Shown: piece by piece, positions 3,710-17,608 of the stretch
Position numbering within the stretch: the stretch's first letter is position 1
Layout of the letters: the number at the start of each line of letters is the position of its first letter
IMG/VR virus record: IMGVR_UViG_2541047692_000008
Coordinates: 1 to 54,354 of that record
Strand: one strand, 5' to 3'
DNA length: 54,354 nt
From: a virus
Taxonomy: Duplodnaviria > Heunggongvirae > Uroviricota > Caudoviricetes
Notes under the pieces: generated by a model
What the model saw: only the letters and a program-made list of their open reading frames with translations
Database searches by the model: none
What the model was told of the DNA's origin: nothing
Translations under genes and position numbers: made by a program

Positions 3710-5131
3710 TTAAAAAGATGCGTTGTTCTGGCTGTTTCGTGGGGAGAATCGACTTGCCGCCGGACGTTGTTGCATTGACTGAATGCAAGCGGACGCCGCG
3801 CGGGCCTGGTCGCATGGGATGATGTTGCCGTTATCGTCAAACCGCTGGTAAACAGTCCCCGTTTTCCCGTGACGGTTTTTTGAAACGATGATCTCCATAT
3901 ATTCGCGGGCAACCGATTGTTCGTTGTAGTAGCCGTCGCGGTAGACCATGATGATCCGGTCTGCGTCCTGCTCAAGATTACCGGAATCACGCAGATCAGA
4001 ATTGTTCGGGCGCTTGTTCGGTCGTTCCTCAACGCGGCGGGATAATTGCGCCAGCGCCGCCACTGGCACGCGCAACTCTTTCGCCATCATTTTCAATGAC
4101 CACGACAATTGCCCTACGGCGAGATCATGACGTTCGGCCTTAGCCAGCTTCATTAACCCGATGTAGTCAATCATTACCATCCCCAGGTTAGGATGGTCCT
4201 GTTTCATCCGTTCGACGGTGGCGCGTATTTCCTCGATCGTTAACTGCGATGCGTCAACAATCCACACATCGAGATCGGCAAGGGCACTCATTCCCTGGGC
4301 GACGTGCGCCCAACCTTCGTCATCCAGTTTTACCGGATTACGTAGGCAATCCGTTGATAAGTTCCCAGCGCCAGCGATAGCACGTTCAGTCATCTGATCG
4401 AGCGACATTTCAAGCGTGAACAGCAAAACGCCGACCCGCTGACCTTCGCCGCCAGGGTATGGACGTTCAGCCGCCGCGCGGGCAATTGCCAACGCCAACG
4501 CCGATTTACCAGACCCTGGGCGTCCGGCGATAAGCACCAGATCAGTAGCATTAATGCCGCCTAACATTTCGTCGAGTGGGTCAATCCCTGTTTTGATGTT
4601 GTCAGAGTTCACGCCACACTCCATGCGTTTACTTAGCACTTCCGTGTATTCCTGGACCGCATCGCGCAACAGCACCGGGATAATTTGATCTTTTGTTACC
4701 TTTAATTTTGAATACCGGGAATCAAAATCTTTCATCGTCTCTTTGACGACTTCAAGCGTCCCTGTTTCCAGCTTGTAGCGAATGTCTTCCATTAGTTCCA
4801 GCATTTGCCGCCGCTGGTGTTCTTCCTGTAGTAGTTGAGCATATCCTTTCAGGTTGGCAGCAGAAGGACACGATCGCGCCGTTTGCATCAGCGGTACAAA
4901 ATTTTCGTTGCCAATCTCATCACCAACCAGCAAGGCGTCGATAAGATTTCTGTTTCTGGCTTGCGCCCGGATAATTTCAAAAGCCCGCTTATATAGCGGA
5001 ATAGTGAACACTTCAGGATCAAGCGTAGCGAGAACATCTTGCGCGTTAGGAGTAAGCCCACCTAACAGCAGGCCACCGATAACCGCCGATTCTCTTTCTT
5101 GCCGCAATGAGTTTACTTGTTCGGTTACCAT
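3710..5131 (-). CDS. DnaB-family replicative DNA helicase
   Basis: 473 aa; Walker A GRPGSGKS, Walker B-like VMIDYIGLM, C-terminal RecA-like region; ggagg RBS upstream of ATG. Confidence 0.85.
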   Translation of the reverse strand: MVTEQVNSLRQERESAVIGGLLLGGLTPNAQDVLATLDPEVFTIPLYKRAFEIIRAQARNRNLIDALLVGDEIGNENFVPLMQTARSCPSAANLKGYAQLLQEEHQRRQMLELMEDIRYKLETGTLEVVKETMKDFDSRYSKLKVTKDQIIPVLLRDAVQEYTEVLSKRMECGVNSDNIKTGIDPLDEMLGGINATDLVLIAGRPGSGKSALALAIARAAAERPYPGGEGQRVGVLLFTLEMSLDQMTERAIAGAGNLSTDCLRNPVKLDDEGWAHVAQGMSALADLDVWIVDASQLTIEEIRATVERMKQDHPNLGMVMIDYIGLMKLAKAERHDLAVGQLSWSLKMMAKELRVPVAALAQLSRRVEERPNKRPNNSDLRDSGNLEQDADRIIMVYRDGYYNEQSVAREYMEIIVSKNRHGKTGTVYQRFDDNGNIIPCDQARAASACIQSMQQRPAASRFSPRNSQNNASF

Positions 5132-6282: not shown

Positions 6283-7227
6283 TCATTGGCAGCAAACAAT
6301 CTCTTTGTATGCTTCTTCTACCATGTAGAATACTTCCGGACTGTAATAGAAAAACTCATTACTACCATTAAATTTTACAGGAAAGTTAATTTTATAATTG
6401 CTAAAAGCCTTATGCATCGTTCTTTCTAATTCATATATATTTTCGGTTGGTCCATATAGCGTTTTCACGATATGCAAATCAGGAATTATAACGCCTGCTT
6501 TATGTGCGCTTCTTAATACCTGATTTCTTCGCTCGTTCTCCTTAACACTTACACCTATTTTCATTTGTGTAGGTACTTCCAGATCATCAACCATGATGTA
6601 AAGTTTTCCGTGATCGTGGGATAAAAACCCGTATTTCGCGCATTTCTGGCAACCGCGCCCGTGTTTAATGTTGCAAGGTCTAGCCGACCACTCATGATCA
6701 CAGACCTTGCAGCGGCATAATACTTTTGTTTTGTCATTAACAATTTCACCTATCACTTCGATATTGGGATTAACCTTTGCAATAGCTGCAACTTGTTCTT
6801 CATGCGTCAATCTTTTTTGTCCTTGCTTTAATCTTGCGCATTTCGGGCAACCCATCCCGCGCTTAAGGTCGCCAGGAATAGGCGACCATTTATGATCGCA
6901 AACTTTGCAGCGGCATAATACTTTTGTTTTGTCGCCAGTAATTTCCCCCAATACTTCAACATCAGGGTTAACTTTCGCAATAGCTGCAACTTGTTCTTCG
7001 TGTGATAATATTCGTTTTTGCGCGCGTTTTAATACCCCGCATTTCTGGCAACCGTTACCTCGTTTAATGCTGGCAGGCTTAGTCATCCACTCATAATCAC
7101 AAACTTTGCAGCGGCATAATACTTTTGTCCCGCTGTTTACTATTCTCCCTAACACTTCAATATCAGGATTAACTTTCGCAATAGCTGCAATTTGCTCTTC
7201 ATGCGTCATCTTGCGCGGCATAATCAC
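6283..7227 (-). CDS. Zinc-ribbon triple-repeat protein with C-terminal T5orf172-like domain
   Basis: 314 aa; three about 66 aa repeats HEEQ(V/I)AAIAKVNP..KVLCRCKVCDH.W....K.G.GC.KC (two CxxC pairs each); C-terminal ...YIMVDD...KIGVSVKENERR...ELE..MHKAF...EFFYY resembles T5orf172/GIY-YIG-related pattern (recalled, not searched). Confidence 0.6.
   Translation of the reverse strand: MIMPRKMTHEEQIAAIAKVNPDIEVLGRIVNSGTKVLCRCKVCDYEWMTKPASIKRGNGCQKCGVLKRAQKRILSHEEQVAAIAKVNPDVEVLGEITGDKTKVLCRCKVCDHKWSPIPGDLKRGMGCPKCARLKQGQKRLTHEEQVAAIAKVNPNIEVIGEIVNDKTKVLCRCKVCDHEWSARPCNIKHGRGCQKCAKYGFLSHDHGKLYIMVDDLEVPTQMKIGVSVKENERRNQVLRSAHKAGVIIPDLHIVKTLYGPTENIYELERTMHKAFSNYKINFPVKFNGSNEFFYYSPEVFYMVEEAYKEIVCCQ
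6625..7206. repeat. Intragenic tandem repeat, about 198 bp x 3
   Basis: gcagcggcataatacttttg recurs at 6709, 6907 and 7109; corresponds to the three zinc-ribbon protein repeats. Confidence 0.8.
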
Positions 7228-15315: not shown

Positions 15316-15324
15316 GTGGACGTA

Positions 15325-15864
15325 ATGAAAAATGATTACGGCGGCAGCCATACGCCGAAAGAAATAAAAGACTTATGGCAAACGCCAAAACCCGTTTTTA
15401 GAGGAATGGATCGGGAATTCGAGTTCGTCGCGGATGTGGCGGCAAACAAGGAAAACGCATTAATCCCGCGATATATAACCGAAGAAATGGACACGCTCCA
15501 TTATCCGTGGGGAGCGGTGGCGATGCCTGGTGAGTATGTCTGGATGAATCCGCCATATTCTAATCCGGGACCATTCGTTGATAAGGCGGCGCTTGAACAT
15601 CAACGAAATCACATTGGCTGTGTAATGCTATTGCCCGCTGACATTTCTGTTAGCTGGTTTATGAACGGCGTGGAGACGGCAAACGAATGCCGATTAATCA
15701 CGCGCGGGCGGCTGGCGTTTATCAATGCTGCAACAGGGAAACCAGTAAGCGGGAACAATAAGGGGAGCTTGTTCTTGATCTGGCATCCACGATGCAGACA
15801 TGAATGTATTTTCACGCAGATAACACGTAAAGAGCTATACGCGAGAGGCGCAAATAATGACTAA
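15325..15864 (+). CDS. dam: Phage N6-adenine DNA methyltransferase (Dam-like)
   Basis: Contains MNPPYS (NPPY catalytic motif) and surrounding pattern typical of phage Dam methylases; aggtgga RBS before ATG 15325. Confidence 0.75.
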   Translation: MKNDYGGSHTPKEIKDLWQTPKPVFRGMDREFEFVADVAANKENALIPRYITEEMDTLHYPWGAVAMPGEYVWMNPPYSNPGPFVDKAALEHQRNHIGCVMLLPADISVSWFMNGVETANECRLITRGRLAFINAATGKPVSGNNKGSLFLIWHPRCRHECIFTQITRKELYARGANND

Positions 15865-16265
15865 GGCAGCAGATTTATTAAGACTTGCAGCAGAAACCAT
15901 AGAGCAAAGAGGTAAGCAAAACGGCTACGACAAAAAAGAGGAAAAATCAGCGCCAAAAATAGCCACTATTTACAACGCTAAGAAGGGGGGCAGATTTAAC
16001 CACGCTTGATGTATGGGATCTGCTAATTTGTCTCAAGGAGGCGCGTTTAGAGGCTATTTTGAGCAATAACAGCGATCCGACAGACACACTAATTGATTTA
16101 ATTAGCTATAACGCGCTAAAAGCTGAGCAAATATTAACGGAGCGGGAGGAAGAGCAAAAGAAAAAACAGGGCGTTTTTGATCTCCCTATCGGTGGATTGA
16201 AGAAAACTTTTGCTGACCTTGCCGGACCAGAACCATCTATTGTACCGGGGCAATCCCACCTGTGA
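15857..16265 (+). pseudogene. Possible single gene split at a G6 homopolymer (15985-15990)
   Basis: ORF 15857..16009 (50 aa) and ORF 16059..16265 (TTG-initiated in the track) join into one ~136 aa reading frame if the G6 run is one G shorter. Confidence 0.3.
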
Positions 16266-16349
16266 TGTTTAACGGTGGTGAGATTACTAATTGGCTTGAT
16301 GTGAAGTTTGACAACGAATCGCTATTACGCGCGGCGGGGTATCATAAAA

Positions 16350-16853
16350 ATGGAAAGGGTGACAATTGACAGGTTATTAGCCTGCGTTTATGTCGCCGTT
16401 TTTGTGATCATCAATCTTATTGTTAATCATTGCGGCCCGTGGGTAATTCCGATCACCACGGTAGCCGCCGTGTGTGTCAATATGATGATCCGTGACCTCC
16501 TGTTATATGACGGCGGCCTGAAATGGTCGGCTACAACATGCGCCGCCGCTGGCGCAATCACGGTGCTGATAAATTACGACGCCGGAATGGTGGCGATCGC
16601 GTCATTCGTTGCGGTTGTTTCCGGTGCACTTATTTCTGGCGGCGTTTACCGGGTTTTGCCTGGTGGCTTTGATTCTAAACGTTGGCCTGCAAATATAGCG
16701 TCCGCCATTGGTGATGCGTTAATTTTTCCTACGCTATCGTTTATGGCGTTTATGCCGGAAATATCAGCTATGCAATTCATCTCAAAAATGGCAGCGGTAA
16801 CGGTGATCACCATCATTATGCGCCGCTATTTCACGTTTGAGGGTAGAAAATGA
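16350..16853 (+). CDS. VUT/DUF165-family membrane protein (YhhQ-like, queuosine-precursor transporter family)
   Basis: Multi-pass membrane protein; ...ASAIGDALIFPTLSFMAF... resembles the conserved GN.SDT.AFF region of YhhQ as recalled; track ORF starts TTG at 16308. Confidence 0.55.
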   Translation: MERVTIDRLLACVYVAVFVIINLIVNHCGPWVIPITTVAAVCVNMMIRDLLLYDGGLKWSATTCAAAGAITVLINYDAGMVAIASFVAVVSGALISGGVYRVLPGGFDSKRWPANIASAIGDALIFPTLSFMAFMPEISAMQFISKMAAVTVITIIMRRYFTFEGRK

Positions 16854-17608
16854 GCAGGGCTAAACATTGGTTAAATAATTGGCTTAGAAGTTGGGTGGTG
16901 TGGTCGCTGTACGACGGCAGCGGGTACGCCGTTAAAGATTGGGCGGAAGCTGGATATAAGTGCTATTGCTTCAACTATGACGGCGCAAATCACGGAGATT
17001 ATGAAGGCGTTAAAATCATTCATCCAAATATTGAATACGTTAACGTCTGGATTGATAGCCATTTCCTGGTAATGTTCTCCCCTGAATTGTCTGTTTATCC
17101 AGAGCCTGACATTATCCTGGGCTTTCCTCCATGCGACGATCTCGCTGTGTCAGGCGCTCGCTGGTTCGTTGATAAATACAGGAAAGATCCTTGTTTTCAG
17201 AATAGGGCGGCAAGAAACGCAATGTTGGTTGAATCTCTGGCTAACATGTATAACGTGCCGTGGATGGTGGAGAATCCTGTTGGTGTGCTGTCAACGCTAT
17301 GGCGTAAACCGGATTTTATCTTCAATCCTTGCGCTTACGGTGGCTACCTGCCGGAAGATGACAAGCATCCTGCTTTCCCTGATGTTTACCCACCGCGCGA
17401 CGCGTACACGAAGAAAACTTGCATATGGTGCGGCAACGGATTCAGGCAGCCGCTTTTTAGACCTGTAGATCTTAACTCTGGTGATAACCCTGGGTGGGCG
17501 AAAACCGGAGGCAGGACGAAACGAACAAAGATGATCCGCTCACTAACACCGCGTGGCTTTGCCCGTGCTGTATTCCTGGCTAACCATGACCGCGTTTTAT
17601 CGGACTGA
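16850..17608 (+). CDS. Divergent DNA C5-cytosine methyltransferase-like protein
   Basis: Motif I-like LYDGSGYA, motif IV-like GFPPCDD (PC followed by D instead of Q), motif VI-like VENPVG; translationally coupled to the VUT gene. Confidence 0.5.
   Translation: MSRAKHWLNNWLRSWVVWSLYDGSGYAVKDWAEAGYKCYCFNYDGANHGDYEGVKIIHPNIEYVNVWIDSHFLVMFSPELSVYPEPDIILGFPPCDDLAVSGARWFVDKYRKDPCFQNRAARNAMLVESLANMYNVPWMVENPVGVLSTLWRKPDFIFNPCAYGGYLPEDDKHPAFPDVYPPRDAYTKKTCIWCGNGFRQPLFRPVDLNSGDNPGWAKTGGRTKRTKMIRSLTPRGFARAVFLANHDRVLSD

Follow-up and report, generated by a model that had tools for sequence, protein, structure and literature searches.

Two predicted orphan DNA methyltransferases and a YhhQ-like membrane protein without a DpdA partner in an mEp021-type coliphage genome

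The stretch of DNA analysed here, called the window throughout, comprises positions 1 to 54,354 (a full length of 54,354 nucleotides) of the IMG/VR virus record IMGVR_UViG_2541047692_000008, and carries on its plus strand four closely packed genes in the order Dam, DUF6378, VUT-like and Dcm-like, a block forming the distal part of the early-right operon. The explanation of this block that we regard as likely combines two orphan DNA methyltransferases, both placing marks like those of the host, with a VUT-like transporter acting on its own, in a phage whose DNA would contain no 7-deazaguanine. An earlier note, made from the sequence alone, had described three proteins of this region as a candidate DNA-modification cluster (a Dam-type methylase, a membrane protein resembling the YhhQ/VUT family and a divergent protein with C5-cytosine methylase-like motifs) and had seen in it hints at a function beyond simple methylation. 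All three proteins are indeed encoded on the plus strand between 15325 and 17608, with the motifs NPPY, GFPPCDD and VENPVG, and the cluster is real; what had been overlooked is a fourth gene, of the DUF6378 family, between Dam and the transporter. The order Dam-DUF6378-VUT-methylase is kept in seven of seven GenBank relatives as well as in 39 of the 41 mEp-type loci of IMG/VR, and it recurs in a relative whose proteins share 52-66% identity with those of the window and whose synonymous sites are saturated. Since the same order persists across such diverged relatives, the juxtaposition of these genes is not due to chance. An exotic DNA modification is unlikely here, and a tempting false lead to new DNA hypermodification, offered by the PC-D-D motif of the C5-methylase-like protein together with the neighbouring transporter, is thereby removed.

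The two methyltransferases

The first gene of the block (15325..15864, plus strand) encodes a protein of 179 aa when read from the ATG at 15325, the list of open reading frames (ORFs) giving the GTG at 15316 as its start. By its motif and by direct matches to hidden Markov models (HMMs) this protein is a phage-type N6-adenine DNA methyltransferase, in agreement with the Dam-like methylase proposed earlier: it covers positions 1-167 of the 169 of PF05869 (E 2.4e-52, 177.5 bits with a cutoff of 28.1), scores 143.3 bits against TIGR01712 (cutoff 97.05), falls in phrog_111 and shows the catalytic (D/N)PPY motif as WMNPPYS in its translation. The ratio of nonsynonymous to synonymous substitution rates (dN/dS) lies at 0.05-0.12 in comparison to phages mEp021 and MagusPhagus. 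The enzyme probably forms N6-methyladenine (m6A) at GATC, a specificity taken from its family.

Direct searches with the 252-aa product of the last gene (16850..17608, plus strand) revealed no Pfam hit at E<=1 (PF00145 included), no NCBIfam hit and no sequence match in PDB. Against phrog_757, annotated as 'DNA methyltransferase', the same protein scores E 1e-86, and its class I methyltransferase fold is closest to that of the C5-methyltransferases, with motif I as YDGSG, motif IV as GFPPC(95)DD and motif VI as MVE(141)NPVG; the divergent C5-methylase-like protein of the earlier note was thus rightly recognised. The phrog_757 family is too divergent for the PF00145 model, and for a few of the homologs a PF00145 hit had been precomputed. 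It is a very large family, extending to more than 7,500 protein clusters at E<=1e-3. Its 1,520 phage records include Drexlerviridae as well as rV5-like, Dhillonvirus-like and Klebsiella T1-like phages and mostly are without any VUT neighbour.

The substitution of the residue following the catalytic Cys, PC-D-D in place of the usual PCQ, had been taken as a possible sign of altered or lost activity, a suggestion which the comparison with the family does not support. Among 79 aligned members the residue in question is Thr in 74 and Asp in five, and in none of them is it Gln, while the catalytic Cys (PPC95), the E141-N-P motif, R152, K188, R230 and R235 are invariant. Motif IV furthermore aligns with 'SPCNDLS' of DNMT3B, and PC-D-D resembles the PCND motif of the active DNMT3 enzymes. 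From these alignments PC-D-D is a clade or lineage variant of the family-wide PPC-T-D, and lost catalysis is not indicated. The same holds for the selection acting on the gene: its dN/dS of 0.09-0.20 within the mEp group reflects purifying selection, which gives no indication of a loss of activity.

Published functional data are available for a member of this family. The 711-bp dcm gene of phage K42 (KarlJaspers-like, Drexlerviridae) was shown to produce 5-methylcytosine (5mC) in a CCWGG site of the multicopy single-stranded DNA (msDNA) of retron Ec86, with 5mC formation measured by liquid chromatography-mass spectrometry, and to trigger this retron; the active-site residues of its product, which was aligned with DNMT3A, were named as C82, E128, K175 and K176 (bioRxiv 10.1101/2023.08.16.553469). 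The 711-bp Dcm of FritzSarasin (Drexlerviridae), about 60% identical to the 252-aa protein, has all four of these residues, and they correspond to C95, E141, K188 and K189 in the window. We conclude that the 252-aa protein, as far as its conserved residues indicate, is an active Dcm-like orphan methylase, with CCWGG or a related site, by analogy to K42, as its probable target.

A VUT/YhhQ-like protein and its DpdA-less relatives

The third gene (16350..16853, plus strand) is listed as an ORF of 16308-16853; the ATG at 16350 is the start used in relatives and most likely the true one, giving a predicted inner-membrane protein of 167 aa with about six helices, whose TGA stop is overlapped by the ATG of the Dcm-like gene (an ATGA junction). 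The protein is, on the profile evidence, a divergent and short member of the VUT/YhhQ superfamily (COG1738, PF02592). Direct Pfam and NCBIfam scans gave nothing usable and a PDB sequence search no hits, the match to Pfam Vut_1 remaining below the cutoff of 27.2 bits (12.5 bits, E 0.19) although it spans positions 6-149 of the 152 of the model. The family becomes visible through relatives. The protein matches phrog_4899 at E 7e-47; in tblastn, phage proteins annotated as VUT, all of them in phrog_4899, cover 90% of its length at 30-36% identity, and the phrog_4899 homolog of phage PEAT2 (gp18) passes the Vut_1 cutoff with 38 bits. A word-indexed homolog search yielded 12 close relatives, and an exhaustive profile search covering 1.84 billion representatives yielded 260, of which 82 were sampled and 78 hit Vut_1 (best E 1.9e-16); with the profile of the clade, E. 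coli YhhQ is matched in the signature region of the family (E 1.8e-11). The HMM check that the earlier note had called for hence came out differently for each protein, directly positive for Dam, positive by profile and transitive evidence for the VUT/YhhQ family assignment, which was right, and for the 252-aa protein negative in Pfam and positive in phrog_757.

Some of the remote homologs have an unusual architecture. One of them (P0220) is a fusion of a QueF-like and a VUT part, and many bacterial ones of 290-340 aa (P0151, P0158, P0159, P0162 and others) consist of a short VUT domain, a hydrophobic segment and a beta-rich C-terminal domain, which mostly ends in F/W/Y and one or two R/K, matches DUF5020 in two cases and, judging from these features, looks like an outer-membrane barrel. 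In the long homologs as in the QueF-like case, the fusion may be genuine or may come from gene calls that were merged.

Homologs of YhhQ in phages were noted earlier, both with and without gene clusters for 7-deazaguanine DNA modification and without correlation to DpdA groups, in 2019 (PMC6884629), and in phage CAjan yhhQ lies inside the dpdA cluster (PMC7544227). In all nine distinct GenBank phages outside the mEp group (LHE71, Lg3, the Opt-719 group, RCIP0319, Phc, PEAT2, Tbat1_6, ECO111 5-P and Acinetobacter phage AB3P2) the VUT gene directly adjoins a gene for a 243-275-aa protein of phrog_887, often by an ATGA overlap; phrog_887 bears the label 'queuine tRNA-ribosyltransferase', that is, DpdA-like. 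Scanning IMG/VR for VUT gave 71 loci, 30 divergent and 41 mEp-type, with a DpdA-like gene immediately beside VUT in 28 of the divergent loci and none within 3 kb in the mEp-type ones. In the loci L065 and L066 VUT and DpdA are followed by Dam within 2 kb. In LHE71 (Tunavirus; L011, 205-884) a Dcm-like gene, found as two tblastn pieces and perhaps interrupted, precedes the VUT-DpdA pair by about 2 kb and is on the other strand. Judged from such loci, VUT, DpdA, Dcm-like and Dam genes move together in variable 'DNA-modification' islands.

VUT-like genes without adjacent DpdA occur in four independent lineages, represented by the mEp-type loci, L003, L019/L063 and L094. Their proteins share T36, T37, N44 and G92 along with other residues, positions taken by N, A, D/E and A/S in 34 proteins linked to DpdA, and this common signature suggests a DpdA-independent subclade of VUT proteins. 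A partner gene common to the four lineages was looked for and none was found. Asn44 was also considered as a mark of a changed mechanism (DpdA-linked VUTs conserve Asp there, as YhhQ seemingly does) and was rejected as diagnostic, 27 of 82 members of the wider family likewise being non-acidic at this position. The nearest VUT relatives outside the mEp group (L019, L020, L021 and L063; 45% identical) are followed by genes for two paralogous proteins of about 140 aa of no known kind and then, in L019, L021 and L063 but not in L020, by an N6/N4 DNA methyltransferase gene, with no DpdA. In L094 (4001-5226 of a 128-kb phage contig) a lysozyme-like ORF and a small lipoprotein-like one, as judged from their sequences, come immediately after the DpdA-less VUT-like gene, which stands where a holin is usually found.

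What the block may do

Being orphan methylases with no restriction partner, Dam and the Dcm-like protein would, according to the explanation favoured here, be expressed from the early-right operon and place m6A and 5mC pre-emptively on the phage DNA during replication, probably at GATC and at CCWGG or related sites. These would be the same marks as the E. coli host's own and would shield the phage DNA from enzymes cutting unmethylated sites. The genome contains 267 GATC and 126 CCWGG sites, with observed-to-expected ratios of 1.03 and 0.96 and hence no avoidance, which is consistent with sites that are protected rather than avoided. As a side effect, the phage Dcm would be the kind of protein which retron Ec86 senses; its family being a known trigger of this retron, Ec86 is predicted to respond to prophages of the mEp021 type, which gut E. 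coli frequently carry.

The VUT-like protein, for its part, would be a functional inner-membrane transporter, descended from phage YhhQ-like proteins that feed DpdA with 7-deazaguanine bases and now working alone, most likely by importing a base of the queuosine-precursor type (preQ0, preQ1 or queuine). Such a base would affect the queuosine-modified tRNA (tRNA-Q) of the host or its 7-deazapurine pool, a shifted substrate being possible as well. While the family memberships, the lack of DpdA, the kept gene order and the purifying selection are results of the analysis, the methylation motifs, the substrate and direction of transport and the benefit to the phage are inferred. The broader proposal that the mEp021-type VUT protein represents an autonomous, DpdA-independent subclade present in at least four lineages, which rather than feeding DNA deazaguanylation manipulates the 7-deazapurine or queuosine economy of the host or moves a different substrate, is put forward only tentatively. 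One possibility within this proposal is that the orphan transporter raises tRNA-Q during the lytic cycle; another is that it drains or supplies precursors for immunity that depends on 7-deazapurines, such as Dpd restriction or the type IV cyclic-oligonucleotide-based antiphage signalling system (CBASS).

Several points weigh against the explanation we prefer. Escherichia coli has its own YhhQ, Dam and Dcm and makes preQ0, and a benefit from duplicating these functions is not evident. The activities of all three phage proteins are predicted ones. At an identity of about 60% the target of the Dcm-like protein may differ from CCWGG; its family furthermore has an invariant Asn (N42) at the motif II position, which is acidic in canonical C5-methyltransferases and Glu in DNMT3B, as well as invariant His48 and His58, which lie in an insertion between motifs II and III. 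It should be noted that the active family member shares the motif II Asn, so that N42 does not preclude activity. The transporter by itself fails the Pfam Vut_1 threshold, its AlphaFold2 model, with six long helices, reaches a confidence (pLDDT) of just 67, and its top match among viral structures in Foldseek, a 'putative vitamin uptake transporter', is weak (E 0.22). The DpdA-less clade differs from the DpdA-linked proteins at about 10 conserved positions, and what it transports may be something other than a 7-deazaguanine.

These changed positions likewise speak for the most serious of the other explanations, namely that the VUT-like gene survives as a remnant of a former VUT-DpdA module and has no role in transport, being either neutral cargo or co-opted as a generic membrane protein, for example in superinfection exclusion or in lysis timing with a holin-like function. 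The overwriting of the DpdA slot by other genes and the holin-like place of the gene in L094 point in the same direction. We nevertheless consider a leftover improbable: the dN/dS of the VUT-like gene is 0.02-0.04 within the group, tighter than in either methylase, and 0.14-0.18 to the 52%-identical relative; the residues invariant throughout the family (N22, G29, P34, R48, D49, N115, D122, F131 and K146) are kept; the gene is intact in 41 of 41 mEp-type loci; and, by the annotation of mEp021, a separate lysis cassette is present elsewhere in the phage. On this evidence of selection the gene is probably not a relic.

Much less probable still is phage DNA carrying 7-deazaguanine, made from VUT-imported bases by an unrecognised phage transglycosylase or by a Dpd system of the host. 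For it one may cite the tight linkage of VUT homologs to DpdA in other phages and several window ORFs of 200-220 aa that have no known function; all characterised VUT members are known as transporters of 7-deazaguanine bases (Zallot 2017, as cited in PMC6884629). Within the window, however, neither tblastn with two phage DpdA proteins nor an HMM built from six DpdA-like proteins and run over all six frames gave a match better than E 0.13, and no member of the TGT, DpdA, Que or FolE/preQ0-synthesis families was present among the scanned ORFs, which were about half of those of at least 150 aa and a few shorter ones. E. coli K-12, the host on which the mEp phages are propagated, is not known to have a dpd cluster. 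All systems known to put 7-deazaguanine into DNA have DpdA as their signature enzyme (PMC10516641), and its absence from the window therefore makes 7-deazaguanine in the DNA of this phage unlikely.

The modification beyond methylation anticipated by the earlier note would need such a DpdA, and it is also at odds with two mEp-type relatives which keep VUT without the methylase. In L036 (3501-4028) and L047 a 175-aa HNH-type gene, recognised by its sequence motifs, replaces nearly the whole Dcm-like gene, of which roughly the last 30 codons survive, and VUT is intact. The retention of VUT in these loci argues against an obligate coupling to the methylase, and from these comparisons the two probably are not coupled. 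After VUT, the ATGA junction is followed by DpdA in LHE71, RCIP0319 and Lg3; in the window the Dcm-like gene takes this place, in L036 and L047 the HNH gene. The slot 3' of VUT looks like a replaceable cargo position. That transporter and C5-methylase-like enzyme form a pair, in which an imported precursor is installed as a non-methyl group or in some other way a hypermodified base or new anti-restriction function arises, is highly implausible given this generic junction and the HNH replacement, the 1,520 phage records with a Dcm-like gene almost always without VUT, the plain 5mC made by a family member and the pairing of VUT homologs elsewhere with DpdA and not with methylases.

Both kinds of methylase are already known and annotated in relatives, and the Dcm-like family has published functional data; the present analysis adds a little by identifying the membrane protein as a YhhQ-like member of a DpdA-less subclade. 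What remains of novelty is the autonomous role of the orphan transporter, if true: a YhhQ-like transporter under strong selection in a temperate coliphage that lost, or never had, DpdA is a small but testable puzzle.

The genome around the block and its known counterparts

The DUF6378-family gene (15857..16369, plus strand), a homolog of mEp021_31, overlaps the stop of Dam by 8 nt as well as the start of the VUT-like gene and is disrupted in the window, where it appears as two ORF fragments (15857-16009 and 16059-16265). Intact copies in relatives are 163-170 aa long and hit PF19905 (E 1e-8). A DNA alignment traces the break in the frame to one extra G at 15984..15989 on the plus strand, where the window has a run of six (G6) and its relatives a run of five (G5): relatives that are 99.7% identical (L023-L025) read GAAGGGGGCAG, the window GAAGGGGGGCAG. 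The additional G stems either from an error in sequencing the homopolymer or from an inactivating mutation of very recent date. The ending '...PGQSHL*' is a natural 135-aa allele of DUF6378, present on 91 contigs. Searches of PDB for the fold of the DUF6378 protein, with single sequences and with profiles, gave nothing significant, and the PHROG label 'phosphofructokinase' on DUF6378-related families was dismissed as not credible as evidence of function.

The window between 15000 and 18000 shares 89-90% nucleotide identity with mEp021, MagusPhagus and mEp010, mEp013, mEp044, mEp515 and mEp554, and 99.7% with an IMG/VR contig; the gene content of the window comprises an integrase at its start, a CI-like repressor, an ERF recombinase, NinG, RusA and a Q-like antiterminator; on these grounds the source phage is a temperate coliphage of the mEp021/mEpimmI group. 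The GenBank record of mEp021 labels the three counterparts as 'putative DNA N-6 adenine methyltransferase', 'putative membrane protein' (six transmembrane segments) and 'putative DNA cytosine methyltransferase', and the paper on the mEp group names the cytosine methyltransferase just in passing (PMC11893012). A scan for promoters and terminators between 14300 and 18000 gave a number of sites not above that in shuffled sequence.

Among other restriction sites, CTGCAG (PstI), expected about 9-11 times in the 54 kb, does not occur at all, and GGCC is low in the window (observed/expected 0.70); this may result from selection against sites cut by a PstI-type system. On the minus strand 3' of the integrase, a gene encodes a protein with a DUF4379 zinc-finger, CapR and T5orf172/MUG113, adjoining a DnaB-like helicase (6283-7227 and 3710-5131, both on the minus strand). 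This multidomain protein could be a defence or anti-defence gene product.

Compared with known systems, the transporter belongs to the same superfamily as E. coli YhhQ, an importer of preQ0 and preQ1, and as the YhhQ homologs of CAjan, PEAT2 and the Drexlerviridae LHE71, Opt-719 and Phc, with which it shares the signature IA-AS...N...D(S/A)xxFP..(A/S)F. It is shorter than YhhQ (167 versus 221 aa) and, unlike the homologs of the dpdA clusters, stands without a DpdA partner anywhere in the genome. Dam has in common with the T1- and VT2-type phage Dam proteins (PF05869, TIGR01712) the full-length model match and the NPPY motif, and differs from them in no notable way, its GATC specificity being assumed from the family. 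The Dcm-like protein is 19% identical to the catalytic domain of DNMT3A/3B; it has no regulatory domains, and the region equivalent to the target-recognition domain differs from that of the eukaryotic enzymes and is specific to prokaryotic phages. Its closest counterparts are the Dcm proteins of K42 and other Drexlerviridae, annotated in BASEL as 'Dcm-like C5 cytosine methyltransferase', which belong to the same family (phrog_757) and length class, have the same DNMT3-like fold and carry the catalytic Cys, the Glu of the ENP motif and the KK pair at equivalent positions. They have Thr after the catalytic Cys, whereas the protein of the window has Asp together with an N-terminal extension of 13 residues, and its gene, unlike theirs, lies in a temperate genome of the mEp021 type, directly 3' of a VUT gene.

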